This document shows positions 12,512 through 61,627 of a DNA stretch of 64,000 bases, piece by piece; positions within the stretch are counted from its first letter, which is position 1; each line of letters opens with the position of its first letter. The translations under genes and the position numbers were made by a program. Where the stretch lies: NCBI GenBank assembly GCA_963707385.1, contig CAVPPK010000002.1, forward strand, positions 354,673 to 418,672. Direction: 5' to 3'. The stretch is from an uncultured bacterium. Lineage in GTDB: Bacteria > Actinomycetota > Actinomycetes > S36-B12. The notes beneath the pieces were generated by a model that saw only the letters and a list, made by a program, of their open reading frames with translations, did no database searches and was not told the origin of the DNA.

Positions 12512-12611
12512 GCGTTAGTGGTGGCCATCTCCACAAACTGAGTGGTCATCCCCCCGACGGGGATGGCAGACTCTCGGGCGTCCTGCCCCCCATCACTGAA
12601 TGGACGTCCAC

Positions 12612-17783: not shown

Positions 17784-17991
17784 GCGGTCCCCTCGAGCGG
17801 ACGGGCGCCTCGGCGCCGGGTGTCGGATCGCCGCAGGAAGGCGGCGATTCCGGATGCTAGCGGCGGAGATGGGGCCGGGGGTCGGGTTTCTTTAGCCTTC
17901 CTCTATAAATAGGTCCCGAGTTCTGCGATAGTAGGACTTCCTAGTGACTGGCCTGCCGCTCCGGCGGCGGCCCCGGGGTGCGGAGGATCGG
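17784..17991. promoter_or_regulatory. Divergent AT-rich control region (ADH operon / PPDK-like operon)
   Basis: TATAAAT (17904-17910). Box TAGTAGGACTTCCTAGTGAC (17929-17948) has inverted arms TAGGA..TCCTA. GGAGGA RBS precedes ATG 17992. Confidence 0.5.
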
Positions 17992-18607: not shown

Positions 18608-18659
18608 GGACGCGAGGAGTGAGCGGAGCGAGCCCCGGAGCGGCCCAGCAGGTGAACGC

Positions 18660-35232: not shown

Positions 35233-35239
35233 CCGTGCC

Positions 35240-35328: not shown

Positions 35329-35335
35329 GTGGGGG

Positions 35336-39294: not shown

Positions 39295-39370
39295 CCTTAG
39301 TATCTTTACTTGACGTTCAGTAACATCCGGGGCAGAATCATCGCACCCCGTCAAGAGGAGTACGTCACCC
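39295..39370 (+). promoter_or_regulatory. Promoter/operator of Rieske-2
   Basis: Box TTTACTTGACGTTCAGTAAC (39305-39324). It embeds the -35-like TTGACG (39310-39315), then 17 nt, then the -10-like CAGAAT (39333-39338). GAGGAG RBS precedes ATG 39371. Confidence 0.5.
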
Positions 39371-40807: not shown

Positions 40808-41536
40808 TCAGTCCTGGTCGTAGCGCAGGACGTAGCTGACGCGGTCCATCCGGGCGCGCCGGCACACCCGCAGCACCGGCTCGCCGGTGGCACCGGCGGT
40901 CAGTCCGTCGCGGACCAGGATGGGCGATCCGGCCCGGATGCCGAGGATCTCGGCATCGTCGAGGGTGGCCGCGTCGGCCGAGATGGTGCGCCAGACGGGC
41001 CGCGGCTCACCGAGCACCACGTTCAGCTGGCCGTACAGGCCGGTCACGTTGTCCCAGTCGCCGGCCGGGTCCGCCAGCAGCGTGCGCGGGAACCAGGAGC
41101 TCGACCACATCCACGCGGCCCCGTTGACCATGAGGGCGTTGTCGATCCGCCACAGTGGGCCCGGGGGCAGCTCGAGCGTGTCGTTGAGTCCGTTCGAGCT
41201 CACCTTGGCCGCCCGGAGCAGGACGTCCTCGTAGGTGAGGCCGTGCTCGGCGATCTGCCCGGTCAGCCCCGCGACGAGAGAGTCGGTGGACAGCCGCTGC
41301 GAGAGCGGCAGCCGGACGATGGGGGCGCTCACGTAGGTGCCGGAGCCCTGCCGCGACTCGACCGCACCGGCGCGCGCGAGCTCCTCGATCGCCCGCCGCA
41401 CGGTCAGGCGGTTGACGCCGAGGTCCTCGGCGAGCCGGGACTCGCTGGGCAGCTTGTCCCCGGCCGCGTAGGTGCCGTCCGTGATCGACGCCGCGATCGC
41501 CAGACGCACGCGCTCGTACAGCGGCACTCCACCCAT
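40808..41536 (-). CDS. GntR-family transcriptional regulator, HutC subfamily (wHTH plus UTRA effector domain), intact
   Basis: PLYERVRLAIAASITDGTYAAGDKLPSESRLAEDLGVNRLTVRRAIEELARAGAVESRQGSGTYV. The C-terminal ~150 aa are UTRA-like. I prefer ATG 41536. Confidence 0.85.
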   Translation of the reverse strand: MGGVPLYERVRLAIAASITDGTYAAGDKLPSESRLAEDLGVNRLTVRRAIEELARAGAVESRQGSGTYVSAPIVRLPLSQRLSTDSLVAGLTGQIAEHGLTYEDVLLRAAKVSSNGLNDTLELPPGPLWRIDNALMVNGAAWMWSSSWFPRTLLADPAGDWDNVTGLYGQLNVVLGEPRPVWRTISADAATLDDAEILGIRAGSPILVRDGLTAGATGEPVLRVCRRARMDRVSYVLRYDQD

Positions 41537-41671: not shown

Positions 41672-42212
41672 GTGACCGAATCCCTCGAACGACGTGTCCG
41701 CCGGCTGGAGGACCGCTTCGCCATCAACGACCTGGTGGTCGCCTACGCCACCCTCCTCGACGACGCCCAGTGGGACGCGCTGGGGGAGCTGTTCACGACC
41801 GACGGCGTCTTCGCGTCGCCGAACAGCACGACGAGCGGCCGCGCCGCGATCATCGAGAACTTCAAGGTCAAGCACGCGCCCTTCCCTGCCACGTGGCACG
41901 ACCCGCACGGCATCGCGGTGGAGTTCGACGATGACGACCACGCCCGTGGCACGGTGATCGGCTACGCCGAGCTGGGTCAGCCGGGGGTGACCATCACCAC
42001 GTCGATCCGGTACCAGGACGACTATCGCCGCGAGGACGGTCGCATGGCGATTCGCCAAGCGCCACGTCCTCAGCCTCTACGGCATGCCGTCGTCGGTGCT
42101 GGCTGCCGGCGGCCTGGGCGTGCGGGACCGCAAGCGCTGGCCCGGCCGCCCCGCCGGGCCGGCCGAGCTGCCGGACTTCGACGCGTCGCTACCCGGGGTA
42201 CCCCGGATGAGC
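41672..42212 (+). CDS. NTF2/SnoaL-like protein; frame interrupted near 42045; 3' end uncertain
   Basis: VTESLERRVRRLEDRFAINDLVVAYATLLDDAQWDALGELFTTDGVFASP...TTSIRYQDDYRREDGRW, then ...RHVLSLYGMPSSVLAAGG...RKRWPGRPAGPAELPDF in the next frame. Confidence 0.65.
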
Positions 42213-42953
42213 GGTGCAACTCTCGACCGCTCCGTCGAGCTCGGCGGTGTCTACAACGTCCGTGACCTCGGCGGCGTGCGCACGCAGGACGGGCACGTCG
42301 TCCGGCCGGGCATGCTCTTCCGTGCCTCGAGCCTGCATCGCCTGACGGACGAGGAGGCGTGGCGTGAGTTCGGCGCGGCCACGGTCATCGACCTGCGCTA
42401 CCAGAAGGAGATCGACGCCTTCCCGCTGCCCGACTTCATCGAGGATCCGACGCACGCGCCGGTGCTGCTGGAGGGCTGGCAGCGCGGACGCGAGGACCTG
42501 CGCCGCGATGACGACGCCGCGGAGCACCTGGCCTGGGTGTACGAGGTCATGCTCGAGCTCGGTCAGGACACCATCCGCCGCATCCTCGGCCAGCTCGCCG
42601 AGACCGAGTCGACGCCGGCGATCTTCTTCTGCATGGCCGGCAAGGACCGCACCGGCTTCGTCGCGGCCGTGCTGCTCTCGCTCCTGGGCGTCAGCGACGA
42701 GGACATCGCCGACGACTTCGCGCTCAGCGGCGACGAGGTGGTCGCCCTCGTGCGCTGGCTGAAGACCCGCGAGGACTTCGAGCAGCACCCGATGATGAAC
42801 CAGTCCGAGGACCTGCTGCGGGCGCCGCGTGGCGCGATGGAGCTGTTCCTCGCCCGCGTCACGGCGGAGCACGGCAGCCTGCGTGACTGGGTACTCACCC
42901 TCGACGTCCCGGCCGAGACCATCGACACACTGCGGGCCCGGCTCCTCGCCTAG
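42207..42953 (+). CDS. Tyrosine/serine phosphatase-like protein (CX5R), second copy, intact
   Basis: MSGATLDRSVELGGVYNVRDLGGVRTQDGHVV..., catalytic loop IFFCMAGKDRTGFVAAVLL, DIADDFALSGDEV. Single frame. Confidence 0.85.
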   Translation: MSGATLDRSVELGGVYNVRDLGGVRTQDGHVVRPGMLFRASSLHRLTDEEAWREFGAATVIDLRYQKEIDAFPLPDFIEDPTHAPVLLEGWQRGREDLRRDDDAAEHLAWVYEVMLELGQDTIRRILGQLAETESTPAIFFCMAGKDRTGFVAAVLLSLLGVSDEDIADDFALSGDEVVALVRWLKTREDFEQHPMMNQSEDLLRAPRGAMELFLARVTAEHGSLRDWVLTLDVPAETIDTLRARLLA

Positions 42954-42983
42954 CCCGCGTCACCACCCCGCCCTGGAGGAATC

Positions 42984-44444
42984 GTGATCGAGCGCAACGA
43001 CCTGTACATCGACGGCCAGTGGGTGACGCCCGCCGGCGGTGACGTCATCACCGTCGACGAGGCCGCCACCGGCGAGATCATCGGGACGGTGCCGGCAGGC
43101 GATGTCGTCGACGGCGAGCGCGCCATCGTCGCGGCCCGGCGTTCCTTCGACGAGTGGGCGCAGGTGCCGATCGCCGAGCGCGCCGACGTCGTGACGGCGA
43201 TCGCGACGGGCCTGCGCGAGCGCGAGGACGAGCTGGCGCGGATCATGGCGCAGGAGGTCGGCACGCCGCTGGCGACGTCGGTGCGCGTGCAGGTGGGTCT
43301 GGCCGCCTCGGTGTTCGAGACGATCGCGGAGGCCGCGCGCGAGCTGCCCGCGGAGGAGCGCATCGGCAACTCGATGGTCCTCCGCGTGCCGGCGGGCGTG
43401 GTCGGCGCCATCACGCCGTGGAACTACCCGCTGTACCAGCTCGCCGCCAAGGTCGGCCCGGCGCTGGCGGCCGGCTGCACCGTCGTCGTGAAGCCGAGCA
43501 GCGTCGCGCCGCTCGCGACGTTCGTGCTGGCGGACATCGTGGACGGGCTCGGCCTGCCGGCCGGCGCGTTCAACCTCGTCTCCGGGCGCGGCGCACTCGT
43601 CGGCGACCTGCTGTCGTCGCATCCCGAGGTCGACATGGTCAGCCTCACCGGCTCCACGGGGGCGGGCGTGCAGGTGGCCCGCTCCGCGGCGGGCACCATC
43701 AAGAAGGTGGCCCTCGAGCTCGGCGGCAAGTCCGCCTTCCTGCTCGCCGAGGGCGCCGACATGGACGCGGCGATGTCCGCCGCGGTGCGCGGCTGCTTCG
43801 TCAACAACGGCCAGACCTGCTCGGCGACCACGCGCCTCATCGTGCCGCGCTCGCTGCTGGCCGAGGTCGAGGAGCGCGTGGCCGCGGCGGTGAACGCCTA
43901 CGTCGTCGGCGATCCGCTCGACGCCGGCCACGGAGATCGGACCGGTGGCGTCGGCGGGCCAGTTCCGCACGGTGTCCAAGTACATCGAGATCGGCATGAG
44001 CGAGGGCACCCTCATCGCCGGCGGGCCCGGGCCGGTGGACGGCCTCGATCGCGGCTACTTCGTCAAGCCGACGGTGTTCAGCCGACTCGACCCCGGCGGC
44101 GAAGGTCGTGCAGGAGGAGATCTTCGGGCCGGTGCTCGCGATCGTCGCCTACGACGAGGGCATCGAGCAGGGCATCGCGATCGCCAACGACAGCGAGTTC
44201 GGGCTGTCGGGCGCCGTGTTCGCCGCCGACATCCCCGAGGCCGTCGCCATCGCCCGGCGCCTGCGCACCGGGCCAGGTGGCCGTCAACGGCGGTCGGTTC
44301 AATGCCAAGGCGCCGTTCGGCGGCTTCAAGACGTCGGGCGTCGGGCGCGAGCTCGGTCACCACGGCCTGATGGAGTACTTCGAGCTGCTGAGCCTGCAGT
44401 TCCCGTCGGCCGACGACCTGGGCTCGTTCGGGCAGACCGTCTAG
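42984..44444 (+). CDS. NAD(P)-dependent aldehyde dehydrogenase; about 3 frame interruptions
   Basis: [24 protein letters not shown], catalytic Glu ALELGGKSA, catalytic Cys [42 protein letters not shown]. Confidence 0.85.
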
Positions 44445-45089
44445 ATGGCGACGGCAGAGGAGCTCGGCATCGCGGAGCCGTGCGAGATCCTGCTCGTCCG
44501 GCACGCCGTGCCCGCAGCCGGACGGCACGCTGGATCCGGGTCTGGGCGACGAGGGCCTCGCCCAGTCGGCGTCGCTCGTCGACTACCTGGGCCCCGAGCG
44601 CATCGACGCCCTCTACTCCAGCCACCTGAAGCGCGCCGTGCAGACAGTCGAGCCGCTGGCGCGCCGAGCGCGGGCTGGACATCGTCGTCGACGAGGGCCT
44701 GCGCGAGTGGGTCTCCAACGCCAAGGCCTACATGGGCACCGAGGGCATGGTCGACACCGCTCGGACGAAGGCCTTCCTCGAGGGCCGGTACGAGGACGAG
44801 TTCATGCCGCCGCACAACGCCGACGAGCTGCGGGCCACGCATGCTGGCGACCATGCGTCGCATCGGACTCGCCCACCAGGGGCAGAAGGTCGTCGCGGCG
44901 AGCCACGGCGGCGCCTCGAACACCTTCCTGGCCGCCGTCCTCGACAGCCCGCGACGGTTCTTCTTCAACCCCGGCTACGCGTCGATCTCGCGGGTGCAGG
45001 TCTGGCCGGACGGCCGGTTCGTCCTGCTCTGCATCAACGAGCTGACCCATCCGCGCGACCGGGGCACCGACCTGCTGCCGATCGGCTGA
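44445..45089 (+). CDS. Histidine phosphatase family protein (3 of 3); about 3 frame interruptions
   Basis: ATG abuts the ALDH stop. [10 protein letters not shown] (RHA variant), [35 protein letters not shown]. Ends at 45089. Confidence 0.7.
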
Positions 45090-45206: not shown

Positions 45207-46476
45207 ATGACCGAGCTGATCGCCGAGGAGCAGAACCTCCAGCTCGAGGAGGAGGTCCCGCAGTGGCTGCGCAGCGACGTCCTCGACGGCGAGGCACGCG
45301 AGCAGGCCATGGCCATGATGCGCCGCCTGACGGTGCACCTGCGCGACAGGACGACCGACAGGCCGACTCCACGATGGAGGAGCCCATCGACAACTACCTC
45401 GACCCCGAGGTGTTCAAGGCCGAGGTCGACCTCATCTTCAAGCGCATCCCGCTGCCGCTCGCGCTCTCGGCCGAGCTGCCGCACAAGAACTCGTACAAGG
45501 CGATCGAGGCGGTCGGCGTACCCGGTGGTCATGACACGCGACGCCAAGGGCGAGGTGCACGCCATGCTCAACGTGTGCCGCCACCGCGGCGCGCTGCTGT
45601 GCGAGGGCCGCGGGCAGGCGCGGGCGCTGACCTGCCCGTACCACGCCTGGTCGTTCAGCATGGACGGCGGCGAGCTCAAGGGCGTGTACGGGGAGTCGAC
45701 GTTCGGCGAGTTCGACAAGAAGGACCGCGGCCTGATCGAGCTGCCGTGCGTGGAGCGGCACGGCGTCGTGTTCGTGTGCCTGACGCCCGGCCTGGAGATG
45801 GACATCGACTCGTGGCTGGGCGAGTGGGGTCCGCAGCTCGCCTCGCTCAAGCTCGACGAGTGCCACGTGTTCTCGTCGCGGATGATGCCCGGGCCCGAAC
45901 TGGAAGGCCACGATCGAGGGATACCTCGAGGCGTACCACTTCGCGGCCACGCATCCGAACACCGTGTTCAAGGTCAACCACGGCAACACGATGGTGTTCG
46001 ACGGGTTCGGCCCGCACGAGCGGCTGGGCTTCGCGCTCCGCACGATCGACGACGTGGTCGACGGGCCCGAGGAGGCGTGGGACCCGTCGCACCACGTGGG
46101 CCCGATCTTCTGGACGTTCCCGGGCTTCTCGATCGCCGGCGGCTGGCGGCAGCGGATGACGGTGGCCCTGTGCCTGCCGACGACGAAGGTGGACGAGTCG
46201 ATGACCGAGCATCGCATCGTGGTGCGGCACGCCATCGACGACACCGTCCAGCACGACCTCGAGGTCATGCGCGACTGGTTCTACGACGTCGTCTACAACG
46301 AGGACTACCTGACCCAGTACGGCGTGCAGACGGGCGTGCGGCGCCACCGGCGGGCACACGCAGGTCTTCGGCCGCAACGAGATCGGCGTGCAGTACCTCC
46401 ACCGGACGATCAACCGGCTCATCGACGAGAACCACGAGGAGGGCTACGCCCGGCCCCGGACGATCGACGCGGGCTA
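45207..46476 (+). CDS. Rieske [2Fe-2S] oxygenase alpha subunit, paralogue 3; about 4 frame interruptions
   Basis: CRHRGALLCEGRGQARALTCPYHAW, NWKATIEGYLEAYHFAATHPNT, C-terminus NEIGVQYLHRTINRLIDENHEEGYARPRTIDAG with TAG at 46474-46476. Confidence 0.8.
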
Positions 46477-46490
46477 GTCCCAGAGGTGCA

Positions 46491-46532
46491 TTGACATCCG
46501 ATAGTCGGCGCTCCATAGTTATCTAGACAACT
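46491..46532 (+). promoter_or_regulatory. Promoter with overlapping dre-like palindrome upstream of Rieske-4
   Basis: TTGACA (46491-46496), then 17 nt, then CATAGT (46514-46519). AGTTATCTAGACAACT (46517-46532) is palindromic in 14 of 16 positions. Confidence 0.55.
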
Positions 46533-46580
46533 TGGGTCGCCGGCTATCGGCGTGCCCTGCCTAGCGTGAGGAGTGCCCCC

Positions 46581-47841
46581 GTGGCCGACGTCGCCGAGAA
46601 GCTCGATCCCGAGGTCCTGCCGGAGTACGTCCCGAGCGACGGTGCTCGTCGGCGAGGCCCGCGAGGAGGCCGTCCGCATGATGCTGCGGCTCGCCGACCA
46701 CGTGCGGAACAAGACGACCGACCAGGCCGAGGGCAACTGGCAGGAGCCGGTCGAGAACTACGCCGACGAGGAGCTCTTCCGGGCCGAGGTCGAGACGATG
46801 TTCAAGCGGATCCCGCTGCCGCTGGCGCTGTCCTGCGAGCTCCCGGAGAAGAACTCCTACAAGGCCATCGAGGCCGTCGGGCTGCCCGTCGTCATCACGC
46901 GCGACGCCAAGGGCGAGGTGCACGCGATGCTGAACGTGTGCCGCCACCGCGGTGCGCTGATCTGCGCCGAGGGCACCGGCACCTCGCGGGCGCTGACCTG
47001 CCCGTACCACGCGTGGTCGTACGGCATGGACGGCGAGCTGCGCGGCATCTACGGCGAGTCGACCTTCGGCGACTTCGACAAGTCCGAGCGCAACCTGGTC
47101 CAGCTGCCCGTCGTCGAGGTCGCCGGGCTCATCTTCGTCTGCCTCACCCCGGGCCTGGAGATGGACATCGACGGCTGGCTCGGCGACTTCAAGCCGGTCC
47201 TCGAGGGCCTCAAGCTCGACGAGCTGCACCTGTTCTCGTCGCGGATGATGCCCGGCCCGAACTGGAAGGTCGTGATCGAGGGCTACCTCGAGGGCTACCA
47301 CTTCGCCTCGCTGCACCCGAACACCGTCTTCAAGACGAACCTGTCGCAACACCGGCGATCTTCGACGGCTACGGCGCCGCACGAGCGCGTCGGCTTCGCC
47401 CTGCGCAACCTCGAGAACAACATCAACGCCGGGGCGGACGTCGAGTCCCTGGACCCGTCGGCCAACGTCGGCGCGATCATCTGGCTGTTCCCGGGCATGT
47501 CCTTCGCCGGCGCGTTCCGCGAGCGCATGACCTGCTCGCTCGTCCTGCCGACCACCAGCGTCGACGCGTCCATGACCGAGCAGCGGGTGTTCACCCGCAC
47601 GCCCGTCACCGACGAGAACCGCGCACGACCTCGAGGTCTTCCGGGACTTCTTCTACGACGTCACCTACGGCGAGGACTACATCACCGGCTACGGCGTGCA
47701 GAAGGGCGTCAAGGCCGTGCCGGGCACCACCCAGCTCTACGGCCGCAACGAGCCGGGCGTGCAGTACGTCCACCAGACGATCAACCGGATCATGAAGGAG
47801 AACCACGCAGGACGGGCTACGCCCTGCCGCGCGAGGCCTGA
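46581..47841 (+). CDS. Rieske [2Fe-2S] oxygenase alpha subunit, paralogue 4 (tandem duplicate of 3); about 4 frame interruptions
   Basis: GTG start VADVAEKLDPEVLPEYVPSD. CRHRGALICAEGTGTSRALTCPYHAW. NWKVVIEGYLEGYHFASLHPNT. C-terminus ...GYALPREA ends at 47841. Confidence 0.8.
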
Positions 47842-47890
47842 CCGTCACCGCTCGACAGCGTCGCAGAAGCATGGACGACCAATTTTCTGG

Positions 47891-47930
47891 TTTCCATTGA
47901 CGGACTCCAGTAACTGGTGTGAGATGACCC
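47891..47930 (+). promoter_or_regulatory. Box upstream of the SDR / paralogue-3 / reductase operon
   Basis: TTGACGGACTCCAGTAAC (47897-47914). It combines a -35-like TTGACG with the GGAC..CAGTAAC box. Confidence 0.45.
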
Positions 47931-47978
47931 CACGGCGGTGACCGCTCTCGGGTCGCCCATGAGTCGCAGGAGTCCTTC

Positions 47979-48764
47979 ATGGCAGGTTCGCTCGACGGCA
48001 AGGTCGCCGTCATCACCGCAGGCAGCACCGGCATCGGCTTCGGCATCGCCCAGGCGTTCGTCGCCGAGGGTGCCTCCGTGGTGCTGGGCAACCGCTCCGA
48101 GGAGAAGGGCGCCCACGCCCTCGAGCGCCTCAACGTCGGCGACCGCGCCGTCTTCAAGAAGACCGACGCGCTGGTCCGCGCCGAGGTCGACGCGCTCATC
48201 GACTACGCCGTGGAGCACTACGGCACCATCGACATCCTCGTGAACTGCGCCGGTGGCTCCGACGGCTGGGCGATGATCGACTCGCTCAGTGACGAGGCCT
48301 GGCAGAAGGCCTTCGACTGGAACTGCAGCTCGGCGTTCTGGGCCACCCGTCGCGCGCTCGCGACCATGCTGCCCAAGGGCTACGGCCGCATCATCAACAT
48401 CTCCTCCATCGAGGGCAAGCACGCCTCGAAGATGGCCGTCAGCCACTACATCATGGGCAAGCACGCCATGAACGGCCTCACGAAGGCGACGGCCGCCGAG
48501 TACGCCACCCAGGGCATCCGCTGCAACGCGATCTGCCCCGGCCCCATCGAGACCGAGCTGATGCAGGAGGCCGGCGCCCAGGTCGCGCAGGCCGCCGGCA
48601 TCACCTACGAGCAGTTCCTCGACGAGTTCGCGCAGGACACCATGACCAAGGAGCTCAACACCGTCGAGCAGGTCGCCGGCATGGCCCTCCTGCTCGCCGG
48701 CCCGCTGGGCAACGGCATGACGGGCACGCTGTACAACGTCGACGCGGGCACCGTCCCCTACTAG
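47979..48764 (+). CDS. SDR family oxidoreductase, intact
   Basis: GKVAVITAGSTGIGFGIA, NCAG, ISSIEG...YIMGKHAM, RCNAICPGPIET. 261 aa in a single frame. Confidence 0.9.
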   Translation: MAGSLDGKVAVITAGSTGIGFGIAQAFVAEGASVVLGNRSEEKGAHALERLNVGDRAVFKKTDALVRAEVDALIDYAVEHYGTIDILVNCAGGSDGWAMIDSLSDEAWQKAFDWNCSSAFWATRRALATMLPKGYGRIINISSIEGKHASKMAVSHYIMGKHAMNGLTKATAAEYATQGIRCNAICPGPIETELMQEAGAQVAQAAGITYEQFLDEFAQDTMTKELNTVEQVAGMALLLAGPLGNGMTGTLYNVDAGTVPY

Positions 48765-48847
48765 GCCGAACCCTCCTGCGCCGCCGGTCACCCTCGGGTG
48801 CCGGCGGCGCACGGATGTCCGCACCCGAATCGAGAGAGGACCGAACC

Positions 48848-50601
48848 ATGGTGGACTCCTGGATCGTCGACTGGACCCGCAACGAGCGGCTGCCGTACTA
48901 CACGCGCGCCAACGCGGGCGAGGTGCTGCCCGATCCGGCCAGCCCGCTCGGGTGGAGCCTGGTGTTCGAGGAGGGCCTGCTGCCGGGCTGGTACCGCGGC
49001 TTCGTCGAGTTCGGCATCTACGGGCCGGACGAGTTCAACACCCCGCCGAAGATCCCGATGGTCGGCATCTTCGGCGGCTACTTCTACCTCAACCTCTCGC
49101 ACATGCGCCTGCTCGGCCTCCGGCTCGGAGCCGACCTCGACGAGTTCGACGCGGGCCTGCTCGGCTCGCACCCCGACACCCCGCCCTACGAGCCGCATCC
49201 GGACGACGTCAACCCGGAGCTGTCGGCCAAGGCGGCGGCGACGATCGGGGAGATCCTCGGATCGACGTCGTACCCGCTGATCGACGAGGACCGCCGTCGC
49301 ACCGCACGGTTCGCCGCCGAGCGACCCGACCTCACGACCCTGACGGACGCCGAGCTCGTCGCCCGCGCTCGCTGGTTCGCGCCCGAGCTCGACAACGGGT
49401 TCGCGCGCCACGACTACTCGAGCCTCGCCTCGACCATCGGCCCGAGCATCCTCGCGGGGCTGTGCGCGTCGATCGGCGAGCCCGACCTCCAGCTCGAGCT
49501 GATCTCCGGGCTCGGCGACGTCGACTCGGCCTCGCCGTCGTGGGGCCTGTGGGCGCTGTCGCGGGAGGCGAACGCGTCGCCGGAGATCACGGCGCTCTTC
49601 GACGAGGGCCCCGACGCGGTGCTCGCGGCGATCACCGACCCGCAGACGGACGCCACCCGGCGCTATGCCGAGTCGTTCGCCGCGTTCATGCGCGAGTCCG
49701 GCTCGCGCGGTCCCAACGAGTGGGACATCCACGCACTGTCGTGGGAGGCCGACCCGCTGGCCCCGCTCAAGCTCGTGAACGGGATCCGCAAGGCGTCCGA
49801 CGCCGACTCCCCGCAGGCGCGGCACGAGCGACTCGCGGCCCGTCGGGCCGCTGCTGCCGACCGCCTGCGTGCCGGCCTCGCAGGCAACGAGGAGGCGCTC
49901 GGCACCCTCGAGATGGCGCTCGCGTCGACGTCGCTGTCGGTGCCGGCGCGCGAGCGCACCAAGGCGACCTGCGTGGCCGTGGTCAACGAGGTGCGCATGG
50001 CCGATCCGCGAGCTCGGCCGCCGCGGCGTCGAGCAGGGCCTGTTCGCCAGGCCCGAGGACGTCATGATGCTGATGAACGACGAGCTCGACGCGTACGTGG
50101 CCGATCCGGCGCTCGTTCCGCGACGTCATCGCCGCGCGGCTCGCCGACTACGAGGAGCTGTTCGAGCTCGATCCGCCGTTCATCATCGCCGCGGATCCGG
50201 CACCGCTGTCGCAGTGGCCGCGCCGCACCGAGCGCCGCATGCCGCTGCTCAAGGACGGCGACGTCCTCACCGGACTCGGCGGCGGCGCGGGCCGCGTCAC
50301 CGGCCGGGTCTGCGTCCTCACCGATCCGTCCGACATGGCCCGGCTCGAGCCCGGCGACGTCCTCGTGGCGCCGTTCACGGATGCCGCCTGGACGCCCCTG
50401 TTCCTCATCGCCGGGGCGGTCGTCGTCGACGTCGGGGCCATGAACAGCCACGCCGTCGTGGTCAGCCGGGAGCTGGGCATCCCGAGCGTCCTGTCGGTGC
50501 AGACCGCCACCAGCCAGCTGGCCGACGGCATGGAGGTCACGGTCGACGGCACCGCGGGGACGGTCACTGTCGAGTCCACGGTCGCTGCGACTACCGTCTA
50601 G
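48848..50601 (+). CDS. PEP-utilizer mobile-domain (swivelling phospho-His) protein, paralogue 3, no ATP-grasp; 2 frame interruptions (near 50000 and 50115)
   Basis: MVDSWIVDWTRNERLPYYTRANAGEVLPDPASPLGW. C-terminus EPGDVLVAPFTDAAWTPLFLIAGAVVVDVGAMNSHAVVVSRELGIPSVL...MEVTVDGTAGTVTVE. TAG at 50599-50601. Confidence 0.8.
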
Positions 50602-50603
50602 CC

Positions 50604-51563
50604 ATGTCGTACGTCTACGAGGAGTACCGGGACCTGGTCGTCATCGAGCGCGTCGAGGAGGCCGAGGGCGTCGTCACGATCCGGCTCGGCGCCCCGACGG
50701 GGGAGAAGCTGCCCGGCTGGGAGCCGGGCGCCCACATCGACGTCGAGCTGGGCAACGGCATCGAGCGCCAGTACTCGCTGTGCAGCCACTTCCACGCCGA
50801 CACCTGGCGCATCGCCGTCCTCCGCGAGCCCGAACAGCCGTGGCGGGCTCGTCGTACATCCACGAGAACATCCAGGTCGGCGACGCCGTGCGCACGCGCG
50901 GGCCGCGCAACCACTTCCCGCTCGTGGACGCACCGTCGTACCTGTTCATCGGCGGCGGCATCGGCGTGACGCCCATGGTGCCGATGCTCGGCGAGGTCAT
51001 CTTCGACAAGAACGTGCCGTGGACGTTCTACTACGGCGGGCGCACCCGCGCGTCGATGGCGTTCCGCGACCGGCTCGAGGCCCTCGGCGTCGTGCTGTGG
51101 CCGCAGGACGAGAAGGGCCTGCTGCCCCTCGACGAGATCCTGGGCAACGCCGACCCCGACACGGCGGTCTACTGCTGCGGTCCCGAGCCGCTGATCGCGG
51201 CGGTGGAGGAGACCTGCGAGCGGCTGGGCCGGTCCGGCCCCGCATGTCGAGCGCTTCGCCGCGAAGGCCGTGGACACCACGGGCGATCCCGGCGACCACG
51301 AGTTCACCGTCGTCCTCAACAGCTCGGGCGCAGAGTACGTCGTGCCCCGTGACAAGAGCATCGTCCAGGTCCTGCTCGACAACGACGTGCGCGTCATGAC
51401 CTCGTGCGCCGAGGGCGTCTGCGGCACCTGCGAGACCAAGGTGATCTCCGGCGAGATCGTCCACCGCGACTCGCTCCTGTCCGAGGAGGACCGCGAGGAG
51501 GGCGTCTACATGATGCCCTGCGTCTCGCGCTGCAAGGGCGATCGGCTCGTGCTGGACATGTAG
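50604..51563 (+). CDS. Oxygenase reductase, phthalate-dioxygenase-reductase type (flavin/NAD domain plus C-terminal plant-type 2Fe-2S); 2 frame interruptions
   Basis: RQYSLCS (RxYS flavin motif), YLFIGGGIGVTPMVPML, C-terminal CAEGVCGTCETKV...MMPCVSR (C-x4-C-x2-C...C). Confidence 0.8.
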
Positions 51564-51606
51564 GGCTTCCCTCGAGACCCCGAGCGGGGGAGGATGACGG
51601 AAACTG

Positions 51607-51646
51607 CTGGGAAGTCCTTGCAAAAGTCGTCTAGACAACTGTACGG
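51607..51646 (+). promoter_or_regulatory. Composite box upstream of Rieske-5
   Basis: CTGGGAAGTCCTTGCAA (51607-51623), followed immediately by AGTCGTCTAGACAACT (51625-51640), which is palindromic in 14 of 16 positions. Confidence 0.55.
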
Positions 51647-51673
51647 TTGCGTCACCCCGCCGAGAGGATCCCC

Positions 51674-52819
51674 ATGACCACCACGCCCTTCGTGCCGCCC
51701 ACCCGCGGTGACGGCCCGCTGCGCTTCTCACCGGAGATCCCGAACACGCCCGGGCCAGTCCGAGACGATCCCGTCGAGCTGGTACACCGATCCCGAGCGC
51801 TTCGAGCTCGAGCGCAAGTACGTGCTCAACCCCAGCTGGCAGATCATGTGCCGCTCGGAGCAGCTGGAGAACGTCGGCGACCACGTCGTCTGGGAGGGCC
51901 ATGGCGAGACCATCGTCATCACCCGCAAGAAGGACGGCTCCCTCGGCGGCTTCCACAACGTGTGCCTGCACCGCGGCGCCCGCATCGTGCGCGACTCCGG
52001 CGAGTGCGCCCGGCGCTTCAAGTGCCCCTGGCACGACTGGGTCTACGACTTCGACGGCCAGGTCGTCGGCGTGCCGGACCGCGAGGACTTCGACCAGGAC
52101 ATCCTCAAGGGCCTCAAGGCGCACCAGGTCGAGCTCGACGAGTGGGGCGGCTGGGTGTGGGGAGTGCTCGACGGCCCCGGCGTCGCCCCGTCGCTGCAGG
52201 ACTGGCTCGGCGACGACATCCTCAAGGACCTCGGCGCCTACCGCATGGAGGACATGTTCCTCAAGGAGAAGCTGACCTGGTACGTCGACGTCAACTGGAA
52301 GGTCGTCGTCGACGCGTTCAACGAGTTCTACCACGCGCCGGCGCTGCACCACATCCCGCCGCAGGACGTCAAGGACGGCCGCGAGATGCGCATCTTCGAG
52401 TTCGACCGCCACTCGATGATGGTCGTCCCGCTCAAGGGCGCGCTGCCCAAGCTGCAGGAGAACCCCGACCACCAGTCGGTGGCGATCTGCCACTACACGA
52501 TCTTCCCGACGAGCGTGTTCAACAACAACCCCGAGCACCTGCAGCTGTTCCGGTCGGTGCCGGTCGCGCACAACAAGACGCGGTTCGAGACCTGGGAACT
52601 CTGGTACAAGACCGACGATCCCGACTACATCGCGCGCACGCAGCGGCACTGGGACCACCTGAAGATCGTCGTGGGCGAGGACGTGTGGACCTGGGAGGAC
52701 GTGGCTGCGGCATCGCGGTCGTCGTACTACAAGGAGAACTTCTTCAACGACCGGGAGTGCAAGATCCCGTTCTTCCACAACCAGGTCAACCGCATCATCG
52801 AGGAGGGTGTCGCGCGTGA
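51674..52819 (+). CDS. Rieske [2Fe-2S] oxygenase alpha subunit, paralogue 5 (third subfamily); leaves frame near 51750 and returns near 52790
   Basis: CLHRGARIVRDSGECARRFKCPWHDW, NWKVVVDAFNEFYHAPALH. The N-terminus and the stop are in the frame of ORF 51647-52819, and the body is in the frame of ORF 51708-53651. Confidence 0.8.
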   Translation: MTTTPFVPPTRGDGPLRFSPEIPNTPGPVRDDPVELVHRSRALRARAQVRAQPQLADHVPLGAAGERRRPRRLGGPWRDHRHHPQEGRLPRRLPQRVPAPRRPHRARLRRVRPALQVPLARLGLRLRRPGRRRAGPRGLRPGHPQGPQGAPGRARRVGRLGVGSARRPRRRPVAAGLARRRHPQGPRRLPHGGHVPQGEADLVRRRQLEGRRRRVQRVLPRAGAAPHPAAGRQGRPRDAHLRVRPPLDDGRPAQGRAAQAAGEPRPPVGGDLPLHDLPDERVQQQPRAPAAVPVGAGRAQQDAVRDLGTLVQDRRSRLHRAHAAALGPPEDRRGRGRVDLGGRGCGIAVVVLQGELLQRPGVQDPVLPQPGQPHHRGGCRA

Positions 52820-53651
52820 CCAGCCGGCAACTGACGTGGCGCCCGACGGTCTCCGACTTCACCTTCTCGTTCAACTGCATCGGCGAGGTCCCCCTCGCCG
52901 AGCGGTTCGCCGCGGCACGTGCCGCCGGGTTCACCGACGTCGGCATCAGCGTGCGCTGGACGAAGGCATGGCTGGAGGAGGGGCACACCCTCGACGAGCT
53001 CGACTCGCTCATCGCGGACGCGGGCATCCGAATCACCGAGCTCGAGGCGATCCGCGTGATGCGCGAGGACCAGGATCCGCTCGAGGACCTGGCCGCGGCA
53101 TTGGCCGAACGTCTGCGGCCCGCGCGACTGCAGGCGATCGGCCCGTACGACGGCACGCTCGACGACGCGGCGGCTCGCGCGGGCCGGGTCGCCGACCGCT
53201 TCGCCCCCTGGGGCGTCGACGTCGTGCTCGAGCCGCTGCCGTTCACCAACATGCAGACCCCGGCCGACGCAGCGGCCATCATCATGCGCGCCGATCGGCC
53301 GAACCTGTCGATGTGCATGGACGTGTGGCACCTGTACCGCATGGGGCTGCCGCTGTCGCACCTGGACGGCCTGTGGCCGTACATCTCGACCGTGCAGTTC
53401 AACGACGGTGCCGTCGAGAGCGAGTTCCCCGACGACCTACGCGAGGACTGCCTGCTGAACCGGCGGGTCCCCGGCGAGGGGCGAGTTCGACCTCGTCGGA
53501 CTCGTGCGAGCTCGCAACGCCCACCGCCCCGACTCGACGTTCTCGATCGAGGTCATCAACCCCACGCTGCGTGCAGCAGGACGCCGGACTCTCCGCGCGC
53601 CAGATCGCCACCGGGCTGGACGCGGTGCTCGCGGCCAGTCGGGCCGCCTAG
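52816..53651 (+). CDS. Sugar phosphate isomerase/epimerase (xylose-isomerase-like TIM barrel), second copy; 2 frame interruptions
   Basis: GTGA overlap start. FTFSFNCIGEVPLAERFAAARAAGFTDVGIS, VDVVLEPLPFTN, MCMDVWHLYRMG, STVQFNDG, C-terminus ATGLDAVLAASRAA. Confidence 0.7.
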
Positions 53652-53683: not shown

Positions 53684-54160
53684 ATGACCAGCTACCGCGT
53701 CGACGGGCTTCGCTTCCCGGATCGCTTCGACATCGAGCAGTTGATGTACCGGTACGCCAAGGCCGCCGACATGGCCGACATCGAGACCCAGCTGACGGTC
53801 TTCCACGACGACTGCCGCGTGAACTTCAGCGGCGACACCTGGCTGGAGGGCCACGACGACCTCCGCGCCGCCTGGCAGAGCGCCTACACCCGCTACCTGC
53901 AGACCTCGCACGCGGTCACGAACATCTCCATCACCTTCACGGGCACCGACGACGCCGAGGCGGAGAGCCTCATCACGGCGTGGCATCGCGATGCCCAGGG
54001 CAAGGAGTGGACGCTGCACGGCCGCTACGTCGACACCTGGTACAAGGGCGTCGAGGGCTGGAAGATGAAGACCCGTCAGATCGTCGCGGCGGGTGCCGTG
54101 GGCCGTGACGAGTCGACGCTCACGATGATGCAGCGCCTGACCATGAGCGACGGACACTGA
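53684..54160 (+). CDS. NTF2/SnoaL-like protein, intact
   Basis: MTSYRVDGLRFPDRFDIEQLMYRYAKAADMADIETQLTVFHDDCRVNFSG...HAVTNISITF...WKMKTRQIV. The stop overlaps the next ATG (TGATG). Confidence 0.85.
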   Translation: MTSYRVDGLRFPDRFDIEQLMYRYAKAADMADIETQLTVFHDDCRVNFSGDTWLEGHDDLRAAWQSAYTRYLQTSHAVTNISITFTGTDDAEAESLITAWHRDAQGKEWTLHGRYVDTWYKGVEGWKMKTRQIVAAGAVGRDESTLTMMQRLTMSDGH

Positions 54161-54957
54161 TGGAGCGGATGCTCGGCCTGGCTGCCGTCGTCACCGGCGG
54201 CGCGCGCGGCATCGGCGAGGGCATCGTCCGTCGGTACGTGTCGGAGGGCGCGCGCTGCGTGATCGCCGACATCGACGTCGAGGCCGGTGAGAGCCTGGCC
54301 GCCGAGCTCGGCGACGACGTCGCCTTCATCCGCTGCGATGTGACGAGCGAGGACGACATCGTCGCCGCGATCGACCTGTGCGTCGAGCGGTTCGGCGCGC
54401 TCGACATCATGATCAACAACGCCGGCGTCTCGGGCGTCACAGGGCCGATCCAGGACACCGAGCTCGCGGACTTCGATCGCACCATGGCGATCCTGACGAC
54501 CAGCGTCTTCCTCGGCACCAAGCACGCGATGCGCGTCATGAAGGAGCAGGGGCACGGCTCGATCATCAACACGTCCAGCACGGCCGGCGTCCAGGGCGGC
54601 CTCGGCCCGCACGTCTACACGATGGCCAAGCACGCAGTGGTCGGGCTGTCGAAGTCGGTGGCGGTGGAGGCCGCTCCGCGGGGCATCCGCGTCAACGTCC
54701 TGTGCCCGGGAGCGACCCTGTCGTCGCTCACGGCCGCTGTGGTCACGGGCGACAAGGACAACCTCGACGCCGCCTACGAGCGGCTGTCGTCGAAGTACCC
54801 GGGCGGCAAGGCGCCGCGCCCGGAGGACATGGCCAATGCGGCCGTCTGGCTGGGCAGCGACGAGGGCAAGTTCATGAACGGCGCCGTGATCATCATGGAC
54901 GCCGGCAAGGAGGTCCTGTCCGACCGGGCCGCCAAGTTCTACCCGATCGAGTCCTGA
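54160..54957 (+). CDS. SDR family oxidoreductase, intact
   Basis: LAAVVTGGARGIGEGIV, INNAG, NTSSTAG...YTMAKHAV, RVNVLCPG. 265 aa in a single frame. Confidence 0.9.
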   Translation: MERMLGLAAVVTGGARGIGEGIVRRYVSEGARCVIADIDVEAGESLAAELGDDVAFIRCDVTSEDDIVAAIDLCVERFGALDIMINNAGVSGVTGPIQDTELADFDRTMAILTTSVFLGTKHAMRVMKEQGHGSIINTSSTAGVQGGLGPHVYTMAKHAVVGLSKSVAVEAAPRGIRVNVLCPGATLSSLTAAVVTGDKDNLDAAYERLSSKYPGGKAPRPEDMANAAVWLGSDEGKFMNGAVIIMDAGKEVLSDRAAKFYPIES

Positions 54958-54967
54958 CTCGGATTTC

Positions 54968-55029: not shown

Positions 55030-55495
55030 GGGTCAACTTGCGGAGCGGCCGATCGTCGAGCTGCCGCTGAGGATCAGCCGCTCGTTGGCCAGCCGCACGC
55101 TGCAGCAGCGCCTCGCCCTTCTCGATGAGGGCGGCGTTCCGCTGGTCCATGACCAGGTCCATGGCGGCCGTGAAGGCGTAGCCCGCGCGGGCGTACTCGG
55201 CTGCCACGTCGGCCAGCAGGAGCGACTCGGTCGGCTGCAGGGCGTCGAGCCTCGCCTGCACGGTGGCGTCGCCGGTCGCCGTCGCGACCTCCTGCGCGAA
55301 CTCCCCGTAGAGCGCGATCTCCTGCTTCATCAGGGAGATCTCCGCCGCGCTGGCGTTCGCGGCGCTGTTGAGCGTCGCGATGAGCATGTGCAGGCGGATC
55401 TGGGCGGCGGGGTCGGTGATCCCGGGCATGACGTCGCGCATGAGCTGCTCGCAGACGTCCTCGAGGATGCGCGGGGTCGACGGTCGCGTGATCAC
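55025..55495 (-). CDS. Hypothetical helical protein translationally coupled to APH-type kinase 2
   Basis: GTG 55495 overlaps the kinase stop (GTGA). VITRPSTPRILEDVCEQLMRDVMPGITDPAAQIRLHMLIATLNSAANASAAEISLMKQEIALYGEF. Single frame. I recognise no family. Confidence 0.5.
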   Translation of the reverse strand: MITRPSTPRILEDVCEQLMRDVMPGITDPAAQIRLHMLIATLNSAANASAAEISLMKQEIALYGEFAQEVATATGDATVQARLDALQPTESLLLADVAAEYARAGYAFTAAMDLVMDQRNAALIEKGEALLQRAAGQRAADPQRQLDDRPLRKLTR

Positions 55496-56500
55496 TGGGA
55501 CGCCTCCGGTGCGTAGGGGAGCTTCAGGGCGATGTTCAGGTACAGGTCGTGGAAGTGCGCGGCGGCCGGGAGCAGGAACGGGCCCATCACGCCGCGGTGC
55601 TGGCCCTCGGCGACGTCCTCGAAGCCGCGCAGGATGTCCTCCACGAGGTGGATCGTGCCCAGTAGGAGGAAGTACTCGGTGATGGCGGGATTGACCTGCT
55701 CCTCGGTGAGGCCCGGTCTTCTCCCGGTAGAGGGCCAGGAAGGCCTCCGGATCCGGGTAGTACAGGTGAGGCGGCATGGGGATCTGCAGGTAGTAGCCGA
55801 GGTCGAGGCGAGGATCGCCGATCTTGGCGAACTCCCAGTCGATGATGTGCGGTTCGACACCCTCGGACAGCAGGAAGTTGCCCGGCTGGAGGTCCCCGTG
55901 GACGAGGGCAAGCGGTACCTCGGGCGGGATGTTCATGCGGATCTTCTTGACCGTGTAGGCGAGGATCGGATCCGGCTCGCCGAGGTTCTCCAGGATCCGG
56001 TCGTAGATCGCGATCACGCTGTCGATGTGCGCCCGCCAGCTCGCCGGCCGCTCGATCCCAGGATCGATCTTGTCGAGGGGAGTCGTGTGGGCCGACGCGA
56101 TGATGCTGACGAAGTCCTCGCGGGACTGGTCGAAGTCCGGGCCGCCGTCCAGGTACTTCTGCATCGACGTCGACTCGATGGCCTCCGACACGATGCACTT
56201 GCTGCCGAGGTACTCGCCCGTGGCGTCGTACCACCGCGGCCGGGGGATGCGGAAGTCGTCGAGGTCCTTGATCGCCTGCAGCAGCGCCCACTCCTGATCG
56301 CGATCGCTCCGGAAGACGCTCATGTCCTCGGGCGGGTCGCCACGCAGGACGAAGGCCTCCCGCGTCCCGTCGGCCCACTGGACCTCGGCGCGCACGGTGT
56401 CACGGCTGTAGCCGCCGGGGATCGGATCGGCGCTGAGGACGGTGGCGCCACGCTCGGGCTCGACGACGTCGAGGAACGACTGGAAGCGATCGATGTCCAC
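55492..56500 (-). CDS. APH/ChoK-fold kinase 2; one frame interruption near 55700
   Basis: GTG start with GGGAGA RBS. Brenner motif LVHGDLQPGNFLL, IIDWEFAKIGDPRLDLG. The C-terminus (LTEEQVNPAITEYFLLLGTIHLVEDILRG...) lies in ORF 55492-55911. Confidence 0.8.
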
Positions 56501-56536
56501 GGATCTCCCTATGCCTCGTGCGGGCGGTAGCTCAGG

Positions 56537-57013: not shown

Positions 57014-58138
57014 GGTGCCAGCACGCATTCGAGGTGGCCGAAGCCGCGGTCCGACGGATCGTCGAGGTTCACGCAGATGGCGAAGTTCTCGGCCCAGGCG
57101 TCGGGCCGCTGCTGGAACCAGCCGGCCGGATCGCCGACGTCGACCGGATGGGACACGTCCCACACCTCTCCTTCGTGGTGGTCGTCGCCGCGGTAGACCC
57201 CGCGGCCCTGCCGGTCGGTGAACCCGTCGTGGTAGCCGCCGCCCTGGAGGTAGACGGGGGAGCCGACGGGCGTCAGCTCGTACCGGTCGACGGTGCCGTC
57301 CGGGCGGGTGAAGGTGACGCGGGTGCTGGTGGCGCGGGGGAGGCCGTCGACCCGGGTGGCGTCAGCGCTGACATCGACGTACGACCAACGCGGCTGTGTC
57401 GGGTCGAGCGGGATGACGATCGACTCGGGGGCGTCGAACGAGCCGTCCCCCTGCTGGTGGAACTGCCAGAACATCACGCGATCGGGCATCCGGATCATCG
57501 TCCACTGGCGCATGGCGAATCCCCGGCGCGGGTCGCGCGTCGTGTCCGGGGCGATCGCAGCCGAGGGCCCGCCTCCGGTGCGACCCATGCCCCACGAGTG
57601 ATCGCGCACGCCGACCCACGAGTCGGGAGTGACGGTGAGCGTGCGGCCGTCCACCGTGATCGACCCGGTGACGGCGCAGCACTGGTCGAAGTTGGTCCTG
57701 TCGTAGACCTTCCGGCCAGCGGAGAACCGGACGATGCGGTCCTCGAGGTAGGGCTCGTGCAGCCCGACCCAGTCGAGGTCGAAGCTGATGCCGTAGGGGT
57801 TGTCGCCGCAGGTCAGGCGCAGTCGGGTGAGCGGCTCGACGATGTCCAGGCGCAGCGGCCCGACCTCGATGTCGTCGATGCGCGGACGCAGCCGCCGGGA
57901 CCAGCCGCAGGTTGTGCTGCCGGCCGTCGACCGTGACGCACGCGAAGCCGTCGATGACGTCGGTGTTGGGGTACAGCCGGATGGCGGCGAAGAGGGTGGC
58001 CCCGGTGGCCTCGTCTCCGAGAGTGAAGTAGAAGCCGTCGTTCCAGTGCACCGAATCGCTGACGACGGAGTCGAAGGTGCCCCCGACCTGGTGCCGCGGG
58101 TACTCGTCCATGCGCGTCAGGCGTCCGGGGTCGGTCAT
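57010..58138 (-). CDS. Conserved hypothetical protein (about 375 aa, beta-rich); about 2 frame interruptions
   Basis: MTDPGRLTRMDEYPRHQVGGTFDSVVSDSVHWNDGFYFTLGDE..., DDIEVGPLRLDIVEPLTRLRLTCGDNPYGISFDLDW, C-terminal ORF 57010-57654. No family assignment from memory. Confidence 0.5.
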
Positions 58139-61592: not shown

Positions 61593-61627
61593 GGGACTCC
61601 TCGGGTCGGTGGGTCGGGCGACGGGGA

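Follow-up and report, generated by a model that had tools for sequence, protein, structure and literature searches.

Phosphorylation-initiated catabolism is known from the Cre, Hpe and Pps pathways. In the hydroxyphenylethanone (Hpe) pathway, HpeHI-HpeCBA-HpeD, a phenolic hydroxyl is phosphorylated by HpeHI, the next enzyme takes the phospho-form only, and HpeD removes the phosphate afterwards (PMC9618137). CreHI phosphorylates 4-cresol likewise (PMC9618137; bioRxiv 10.1101/2020.01.08.898148), and in Ensifer a phosphoenolpyruvate (PEP)-utilizing protein and a dikinase are both required in vivo for the hydroxylation of 3-hydroxypyridine (bioRxiv 10.1101/2020.01.08.898148). HpeH, CreH and PpsA are H components, each with the gene for its ATP-grasp I component beside its own (PMC12167813; PMC9618137). 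The subject here is a protein with the make-up of an H component, carrying a swivel domain with a catalytic histidine, that is encoded among Rieske oxygenase genes in a 64-kb stretch of contig CAVPPK010000002.1 from an uncultured actinomycete. The whole of that stretch is called the window, and the protein, the third of its kind there, swivel paralogue 3. Its gene lies in what an earlier note, made from the sequence letters, had termed cassette B (45207-52819), and this is the core of a real, conserved actinobacterial catabolic operon inside an island of ~60 kb.

That phosphorylation can assist catabolism is established; what is new is the presence of an ATP-grasp-less phosphotransferase, resembling both rifampin phosphotransferase (RPH) and HpeH, within multi-Rieske oxygenase operons. 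No paper describing this combination was found in the literature, and a literature search joining PEP-utilizing or phosphohistidine proteins with Rieske oxygenases returned nothing relevant. The window is interrupted by many frameshifts, and so Pfam scans, which covered every window protein of 100 aa or more, were run on frameshift-joined translations. Intact orthologues served as tblastn queries to sharpen the coordinates, and the gene junctions were read directly. On such translations the gene content and order set out in the earlier note are confirmed: Rieske-3, Rieske-4, a short-chain dehydrogenase/reductase (SDR), the PF00391 (swivel) protein, a reductase, Rieske-5, a TIM-barrel protein, an NTF2-like protein and a second SDR.

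A swivel-histidine protein without an ATP-grasp domain

Swivel paralogue 3 (583 aa; 48848..50601, plus strand) combines an Rph_4th-like substrate-binding domain with a PEP-utilizers swivel domain. The local copy of Pfam matches only PF00391, at residues 500-570 of the 578-aa joined translation, while intact orthologues carry the newer family Rph_4th as well as PEP-utilizers, and in PDB and NCBIfam searches residues ~220-578 align with RPH, PigC and RedH over the C-terminal two thirds of those proteins. An AlphaFold (AF2) model built with 20 orthologues in the alignment has a pLDDT of 73 and a pTM of 0.79, and its sole full-length structural match is RPH-Lm (513 columns, TMq 0.61, 19% identity, Foldseek E=4e-17). 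HpeH, too, is reported to match RPH-Lm structurally over its full length (PMC12167813). The catalytic histidine is His534 (codon 50449-50451), within an N-S-H motif that is invariant in the 20 orthologues and present in all three window paralogues; the serine preceding the catalytic histidine is also found in PpsA and CreH (PMC12167813). Neither the domain searches nor the AF2 fold has an ATP-grasp domain. Swivel paralogue 3 is, as modelled, the substrate-binding domain of the RPH/PigC/HpeH family plus the phospho-histidine swivel domain, minus ATP-grasp, and a rifampin-binding-like domain followed by a C-terminal swivel with the catalytic histidine is the architecture of an H component. A rifampin phosphotransferase it is not: it scores 125.7 bits against a cut-off of 999 (NF041857) and 84 against 1700 (NF000283), with model positions 559-862 alone being matched. 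The aromatic kinase MarK was considered as a relative and rejected, its fold family (UPF0261) being an unrelated one.

More than 2,300 database proteins are of this swivel type, and they go under the labels ‘pyruvate, water dikinase’, ‘PEP-utilizing enzyme’ or ‘rifampicin phosphotransferase’. The JGI labels ‘rifampicin phosphotransferase’ and ‘pyruvate, water dikinase’ on many of these ATP-grasp-less proteins are probably misannotations, and could inflate counts of resistance genes. On the present analysis the proteins form a clade that lacks ATP-grasp and is linked with oxygenase clusters.

The other two window paralogues are more distant. Paralogue 2 (12600..14328, plus strand; 34% identical to paralogue 3) is encoded directly 3′ of a Rieske gene at 11302-12500 and faces the gene for an OYE-type flavoprotein. 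Paralogue 1 (7955..9693, plus strand; ~27% identical to paralogue 3) lies between a SnoaL_4 gene at 7456-7894 and a His_Phos_1 gene at ~9790-10425. The suggestion that cassette B repeats an association present in another cassette of the window, A, holds loosely, but neither paralogue 1 nor paralogue 2 sits between an SDR and a reductase as paralogue 3 does.

Conservation of the swivel-oxygenase link

Orthologous loci were scanned with one genome per species, giving 71 loci, and counts were restricted to those with at least 5 kb of flank. All 33 loci whose swivel orthologue reaches 55% identity have a Rieske gene no more than 5 kb away; in that range 31 of the 33 also have an SDR gene and 26 a His_Phos_1 gene. 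With homologues less than 55% identical, a Rieske gene is nearby in 2/12 loci. Carriers range from freshwater metagenome-assembled genomes (MAGs) to Geodermatophilus, Trujillonella, Blastococcus, Frankiales, Pseudonocardiaceae, Trebonia and Streptomyces. In relatives the SDR gene runs 1-4 nt into the swivel gene. Gene order varies by group. Geodermatophilus has, in sequence, reductase, Rieske (VanA_C), Rieske-5 type, ABM, Rieske-3/4 type, SDR, swivel, luciferase-like and SnoaL_4; a group at 58-63% identity has Rieske-5, Rieske-3/4, SDR and swivel, and in the window the genes for the reductase and Rieske-5 come after the swivel gene.

The earlier note had proposed that orthologous clusters always lacking the PF00391 protein would speak against a functional link, and this was examined from the Rieske-5 side, by scanning metagenomes with a Rieske-5 profile. 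Eighteen syntenic clusters had enough flank, and 15 of them have the swivel gene; it is absent from L085, L086 and L105. In L085 (VFQT010001262.1) and L086 (FLOH01000049.1) the reductase gene follows the SDR gene after 93-105 nt, at 6844-6949, with no swivel gene between them, and both are collinear with the window from the GntR gene to the downstream APH and epimerase genes and their neighbors. The swivel-oxygenase link is strongly conserved, though not obligatory. That it is functional rather than accidental, as had been argued, is largely borne out by the constant proximity of a Rieske gene. The absence of the swivel gene from three of the 18 clusters implies that the swivel protein is a dispensable or replaceable accessory of the pathway and not an oxygenase subunit.

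A candidate phosphoryl donor

No separate ATP-grasp (PPDK_N) I component is encoded adjacent to swivel paralogue 3, as it would be for a two-component dikinase of the known kind. With an ATP-grasp partner absent nearby, the swivel histidine must be charged in trans, and the question arises of what donates to a swivel histidine without a nucleotide-binding partner.

The best candidate from the sequence is a pair of proteins encoded at 18-21 kb. The larger resembles pyruvate phosphate dikinase (PPDK) and is encoded on the plus strand at 18600..21210, the limits being approximate on account of frameshifts; its swivel histidine and PEP site are intact and its ATP site is degenerate. Its homologues, of which at least 120 are listed, are ~850 aa long, and many are named ‘putative PEP-binding protein’ by NCBI; all of those listed have PEP-utilizers and PEP-utilizers_C, and none of them has PPDK_N (PF01326). 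The family aligns to Clostridium symbiosum PPDK from residue 173 onward only. In C. symbiosum numbering, the swivel GGxASH motif and R561, R617, E745, N768/D769 and C831 are invariant, while K22, D321, Q335, R337 and the QGEDVV motif are replaced. The positions from R561 to C831 form the PEP/pyruvate site, and the replaced ones handle nucleotide and phosphate. The protein thus has no functional PPDK nucleotide-binding domain (PF01326; K22, R92, D321, E323, Q335, R337) of the TIGR01828 kind; the frameshifted window copy scores 612 bits against the TIGR01828 cut-off of 843.

The smaller protein, of 200 aa, is encoded just upstream (17991..18590, plus strand) and has no Pfam match. Its AF2 model is confident (pLDDT 90.7) and consists of a small N-terminal subdomain, with helices and a β-hairpin, and a helical bundle; Foldseek gave no significant PDB match (best E=0.09). 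The homologues listed for it are close orthologues, mostly 201-205 aa long (range 195-217); none of them has a Pfam match, and no fusions are among them. The genes for the two proteins form a conserved overlapping pair in actinomycete MAGs and Streptomyces, and in the MAG L160 the PPDK-like gene is accompanied by an AMP-binding gene instead of the helical-protein gene.

Six of eight informative loci have a swivel-type gene no more than 10 kb from the PPDK-like one. The distance to the nearest swivel-type gene is 4.3 kb in the window, 5.8 kb in L076, 5.3 kb in L160, 6.5 kb in L161 and 5.4 kb in L162, and in Lentzea the two are adjacent; in Streptomyces cavernae (L078) it is 18.5 kb, and in Streptomyces sp. 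CA-288835 (L077) there is none within 10 kb. In Lentzea sp. NPDC051838 (L046, 9228-13326) the gene after an SDR gene encodes a fusion of 671 aa, in which a protein of the paralogue-3 type (52% identical) is joined to the C-terminal 120 residues of the helical protein, and the stop codon of the fusion overlaps, as GTGA, the start of a gene for a 437-aa swivel plus PEP-domain protein that lacks the N-terminal domain. The proximity of PPDK-like and swivel genes, together with the Lentzea fusion, makes a PEP-dependent donor plausible, by association only.

Drawn out in full, this would be a PEP-driven phosphorelay to small molecules, distinct from the phosphotransferase system (PTS). PEP would be the source from which the PPDK-like protein is charged; the 200-aa helical protein would serve as adaptor, the phosphoryl group being passed to the swivel histidine of the three ATP-grasp-less RPH-like proteins; and these would phosphorylate catabolic intermediates handled by the Rieske oxygenases. 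The complete scheme, from PEP to the intermediates of the Rieske pathway, is speculative and is put forward as an unlikely, if coherent, possibility.

Proposed pathway and its alternatives

The gene set comprises a phosphotransferase, oxygenases with a reductase, SDRs, an aldehyde dehydrogenase, phosphatases of two kinds and, nearby, APH-family kinases, and it follows the same logic as the known phosphorylation-initiated pathways. The best explanation, to which a probability of about one half is given, is a pathway like Cre or Hpe with a transient phosphate tag, in which the swivel protein is the phosphotransferase half. Three alpha-only Rieske mono- or dioxygenases would take electrons from the one PDR/VanB-type reductase and oxygenate the substrate, the two SDRs and the aldehyde dehydrogenase continuing the oxidation. 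Swivel paralogue 3 would, via His534, attach a temporary phosphate to the substrate or to the SDR product, at a hydroxyl or enol oxygen. The tagged compound would be what the oxygenases and dehydrogenases work on, and its phosphate would finally be removed by the His_Phos_1 and Y_phosphatase3 enzymes, whose genes lie upstream. The swivel histidine itself would be charged in trans, perhaps by the PPDK-like protein and its 200-aa partner. If true, phosphorylation-initiated catabolism extends to the Rieske pathways common in freshwater and soil Actinobacteria.

The analogy is supported by a comparable assembly with a different oxygenase on Rhodococcus megaplasmids. Their swivel homologues, 37-40% identical, adjoin genes for a reductase annotated ‘PDR/VanB family oxidoreductase’, a P450, an SDR labelled ‘coniferyl-alcohol dehydrogenase’, an aldehyde dehydrogenase, a histidine or SurE phosphatase and an APH/EcKL kinase, and the 375-aa Pfam-negative protein described below is encoded there too. 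On plasmid pA of R. pyridinivorans (L163, 3445-13746), genes for a P450, an aldehyde dehydrogenase, an SDR and a 495-aa canonical PPDK_N plus swivel protein form one operon, and near this Cre-like operon are genes for a SurE phosphatase, a swivel-type ‘PEP-utilizing enzyme’, an EcKL/APH kinase and a PDR-type reductase.

Several observations weigh against a phosphate-tag pathway. A PF01326 (ATP-grasp) match is present in none of the window proteins scanned, and a phmmer search with a canonical Rhodococcus ATP-grasp protein as seed found none in ~160 related loci, only PPDK-like N-domains being matched. The three swivel-less syntenic clusters keep both phosphatases. The Rieske proteins resemble 3N0Q, Stc2, CntA and GbcA over their N-terminal ~200 residues only, and the window copy of the swivel gene is itself frameshifted, which is put down to assembly error.

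The absence of an ATP-grasp gene from the neighborhood also bears on a more conventional explanation, that this is an ordinary two-component ATP-dependent dikinase in which one remote HpeI-like ATP-grasp protein serves all three swivel paralogues and the PPDK-like protein is uninvolved. All characterized relatives use an ATP-grasp partner (PMC12167813), the homologue on Rhodococcus pA has a canonical PPDK_N plus swivel gene ~7 kb away, and a remote partner could lie beyond the 64 kb of genome seen. However, the two genes are adjacent in HpeHI, CreHI, PpsAB and Ensifer orf9/10 (PMC9618137; bioRxiv 10.1101/2020.01.08.898148), no ATP-grasp gene was found within 8-10 kb in the ~160 loci, and PF01326 is absent from the Pfam lists of 11 related loci (L001-L004, L076-L079, L160-L162), which leaves a remote partner as a doubtful but serious possibility. 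A more sceptical interpretation is that the swivel gene rides along, as an accessory or regulatory passenger, with an island that is mobile or conserved, kept by inherited synteny without a shared pathway or any phosphorylated intermediate. Its clean absence from L085 and L086, and its absence from L105, with the cluster otherwise unchanged, are what such a passenger would lead one to expect, as is the rarity of Rieske genes near homologues of less than 55% identity. Yet the association survives extensive rearrangement of gene order between the 58-63% identity group and the window, and survives replacement of the Rieske oxygenase by a P450 in Rhodococcus, while the swivel gene overlaps the SDR gene and phosphatases and APH kinases recur beside it; a mere passenger is accordingly judged rather improbable. 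That the block is a decaying pseudogene cluster, its frameshifts being real, is rejected as scarcely credible. The ~15 frameshifts within the 7.6 kb of 45207-52819 would invite it, but G+C at third codon positions (GC3) is 0.9-1.0 in every frame segment with stops arising from the shifts alone, frameshifts have the same density over all 64 kb whatever the gene, and the swivel genes of relatives at 96-97% identity give intact proteins of 582-584 aa. Truncated calls also come from other long (at least 0.28 Mb) contigs (P0087, P0089, P0207), the named ones being Microflora Danica (‘MFD’) MAGs.

The operon and its boundaries

Cassette B had been presented as one co-directional block. The genes given for it stand, but the co-directional unit is larger, beginning at ~41.7 kb after a divergent gene for a GntR/UTRA-family regulator (40810..41502, minus strand; Pfam GntR and UTRA) whose position is kept in L001 and L003. 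First in the unit are a SnoaL_4 protein and a Y_phosphatase3 phosphatase (41706..42927), two overlapping genes in L003, followed on the same plus strand by an aldehyde dehydrogenase (42981..44443; Aldedh, 474 bits; three frameshifts) and, immediately 5′ of Rieske-3, a His_Phos_1 histidine phosphatase (44543..45084). Rieske-3 (45207..46479) and Rieske-4 (46581..47841), both with Pfam Rieske and Ring_hydroxyl_A, are tandem paralogues of 64-68% identity, represented by a single copy in L003, L085 and L086; they are a lineage-specific tandem duplication, and a sigma-70-like site is present in the spacer between them (46491-46519). SDR 1 (261 aa; 47979..48764) is an intact ORF, 96% identical to its orthologue in L002. 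Next come swivel paralogue 3 and the PDR/VanB-type reductase (50604..51563), whose ATG at 50604 comes 3 nt after the swivel stop codon at 50599-50601, as had been claimed and as the junction reads. Then follow Rieske-5 (51674..52834; Rieske and Ring_hydroxyl_A), a xylose-isomerase-like TIM-barrel protein (AP_endonuc_2; 52816 to an approximate end at ~53646, with a frameshift at ~53478), a SnoaL_4 (NTF2-like) protein (53684..54160) and SDR 2 (54160..54957), all on the plus strand. A scan of 44.4-55.2 kb gave a single plus-strand terminator-like hairpin, at 54947..54962, and no internal one. By these sequence signals the hairpin marks the end of the unit, and 41.7-54.96 kb is probably one transcription unit of ~13 genes.

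The junction of Rieske-5 and the TIM-barrel gene needs correction. The open reading frame (ORF) of 51674-52819 in frame 2 that was taken for Rieske-5 is mostly a stop-free shadow frame. The gene proper starts at the ATG at 51674, has a +1 insertion at ~51748 and a 1-nt deletion at ~52822, and stops at a TGA at 52832-52834. The apparent GTGA coupling of the two genes is an artefact of the shadow frame, the true arrangement being an overlap of 19 nt in the window and 20 nt in relatives.

Sequence comparison bears out the count of five terminal oxygenases in three subfamilies, the fifth copy, of the third subfamily, being at 39370..40797 on the plus strand. All five are Rieske oxygenase alpha subunits, with a Rieske 2Fe-2S motif (CxH...CxxH) and a Ring_hydroxyl_A domain with a His-His iron motif. 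The reductase has FNR-like, NAD-binding and C-terminal plant-type 2Fe-2S domains (NAD_binding_1 at residues 115-161, Fer2 at 239-311) with an RQYS flavin motif and CxxxxCxxC, the features of the PDR/VanB type (class IA). In the Pfam scan of the 64-kb window it is the one PDR-type reductase, and there is one small Fer2 protein, a lone plant-type 2Fe-2S ferredoxin (577..903, minus strand), with no further ones. The proposal in the earlier note that one reductase would have to serve five oxygenases is compatible with this content of the window.

Five or six NTF2-like proteins are encoded in the window. SnoaL_4 genes are at 1-492 (minus strand), 7456-7894, 41706-42200, 53684-54160 and 56544-56991 (minus strand), and there is a SnoaL_2 domain at ~61198-61600 (minus strand). 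The SnoaL_4 protein at 53684 and its L003 orthologue match Ring_hydroxyl_B weakly. The NTF2-like proteins might be beta-subunit-like partners of the alpha-only Rieske proteins. None of the proteins of the block reaches a curated NCBIfam equivalog cut-off, and PDB searches with the Rieske proteins or the TIM barrel (top matches Lmo2234 and AsbF, E>=7e-5) gave no hint of the substrate.

State of the sequence

The window has a G+C content of 70%. A GC3 frame plot and a seven-state hidden Markov model frame decoder show that the coding frame changes repeatedly within genes on both strands. The decoder gives 95 frame switches in 56.8 kb of coding sequence, of which ~75-80 are true frameshifts, the remainder being real gene boundaries; this is ~1 per 600-750 coding bases. 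Compared with a 96%-identical relative, the indels of the window are mostly single-base insertions; homopolymers alone were considered as their explanation and rejected, many 1-nt insertions falling outside homopolymer runs. Rieske-3 has four frameshifts (five frame segments), Rieske-4 at least four, the reductase two to three, Rieske-5 two and swivel paralogue 3 two, these last being 1-nt insertions at ~50001 and ~50111. Three compensating 1-nt insertions at 47347-47376 in Rieske-4 garble ~10 residues (SQHRRSSTATA).

The frameshifts are attributed, on the pattern described, to long-read MAG assembly error and not to biology. The public record holds the same errors: the truncated ORF 48848-50443 is exactly what is deposited as protein P0081 (531 aa, identity 100%), on a contig of 539,181 bp. 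L001 and L002, from sample ERZ25039459, encode an identical 583-aa swivel protein, have different flanks and have different frameshifts of their own; they may be co-existing strains or assembly haplotypes. The near-1 GC3 leaves the -1 shadow frame almost stop-free, and this explains why long single-frame ORFs in the earlier note were partly wrong. Single-frame ORF calls anywhere in the window are unreliable.

The wider island

The window is unusually rich in phospho-enzymes that act on small molecules: two Pfam-confirmed APH kinases, three His_Phos_1 and two Y_phosphatase3 proteins, the three swivel proteins and the one PPDK-like protein. Downstream of the operon, and conserved as its neighbors, are genes for an APH-family kinase and a 153-aa ORF (55100..56501, minus strand). 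A second APH region is at 59352-60310 (plus strand), and one at 29522-30452 (minus strand) is Pfam-negative and APH-like in look only. Phosphatase genes are at 5179-5861, ~9790-10425, ~28330-28975, 41706-42927 and 44543-45084. A protein of 364-375 aa without a Pfam match (57029..58121, minus strand) travels with APH kinases and swivel genes, and its family, of 364-378 aa (L164, 9324-10460), extends from freshwater MAGs to Rhodococcus megaplasmids at 31-38% identity.

The island also encodes a sugar-type ABC transporter and ThuA-like proteins. At 24900-36450 are genes for 2-oxoacid dehydrogenase E1alpha, E1beta and E2, ADH_N_2, a ChsH2-type OB-fold protein, an SCP-x-type thiolase and acyl-CoA dehydrogenases, and these are kept with the PPDK-like pair in Streptomyces (L077, L078). 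Their annotation suggests a CoA-dependent branch for side-chain degradation. Cultured carriers include Geodermatophilus, Lentzea, Streptomyces cavernae, Trujillonella and the Rhodococcus strains with megaplasmids.

Comparison with known systems

The closest counterparts of swivel paralogue 3 are the H components of HpeHI, CreHI, PpsAB and AcvAB. They, too, have a rifampin-binding-like helical domain and a C-terminal swivel with a serine before the catalytic histidine, and they are encoded in catabolic clusters that also encode a phosphatase; RPH is the sole full-length structural neighbor of paralogue 3, as is reported for HpeH. HpeH, CreH and PpsA share ~45% mutual identity, and systems of their type convert ATP to AMP and Pi and pass the beta-phosphate via the histidine to a phenolic hydroxyl. 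In contrast, the window lacks an adjacent ATP-grasp (I) gene, has three paralogues in the one island, and has Rieske oxygenases as neighbors in place of biotin carboxylase or P450. Paralogue 3 scores higher against RPH, PigC and RedH models than against PRK08296-type models. With RPH itself (PDB 5FBS/5FBT/5HV1; NF041857) the fold of the rifampin-binding and histidine domains matches, ~300 residues aligning at E=3.5e-27, but the N-terminal ATP-grasp domain of ~320 aa is missing from paralogue 3 and the context is catabolic rather than one of resistance.

Of the alpha-only Rieske systems, Stc2, CntAB and GbcAB have, like the window, the Rieske CxH...CxxH and (E/D)xxxHxxxxH iron motifs and no canonical beta-subunit gene. 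Similarity to the window proteins covers ~200 N-terminal residues (E ~1e-24 to 1e-27), the score against the GbcA equivalog NF058607 is 88-137 bits, from the N-terminal half only, where 670 are called for, and the window differs in having several oxygenases for its one reductase. That reductase, like those of PDR, VanAB and KshAB, is a single polypeptide with a C-terminal plant-type ferredoxin domain. The PPDK-like protein shares the swivel GGxASH motif and a full PEP/pyruvate site with PPDK and Enzyme I of the PTS; unlike in these, its N-terminal domain matches no PF01326 model, and in Lentzea it is missing entirely.

The 4-cresol pathway of Corynebacterium glutamicum, CreHI-CreJEF-CreG-CreC-CreD, offers a parallel for the operon. 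Although the oxygenases of the window are of Rieske type, not P450, and a CreI equivalent is not present, the same activities are encoded in both: a phosphotransferase, an oxygenase with its reductase, an SDR-type dehydrogenase, an aldehyde dehydrogenase and a phosphohydrolase.

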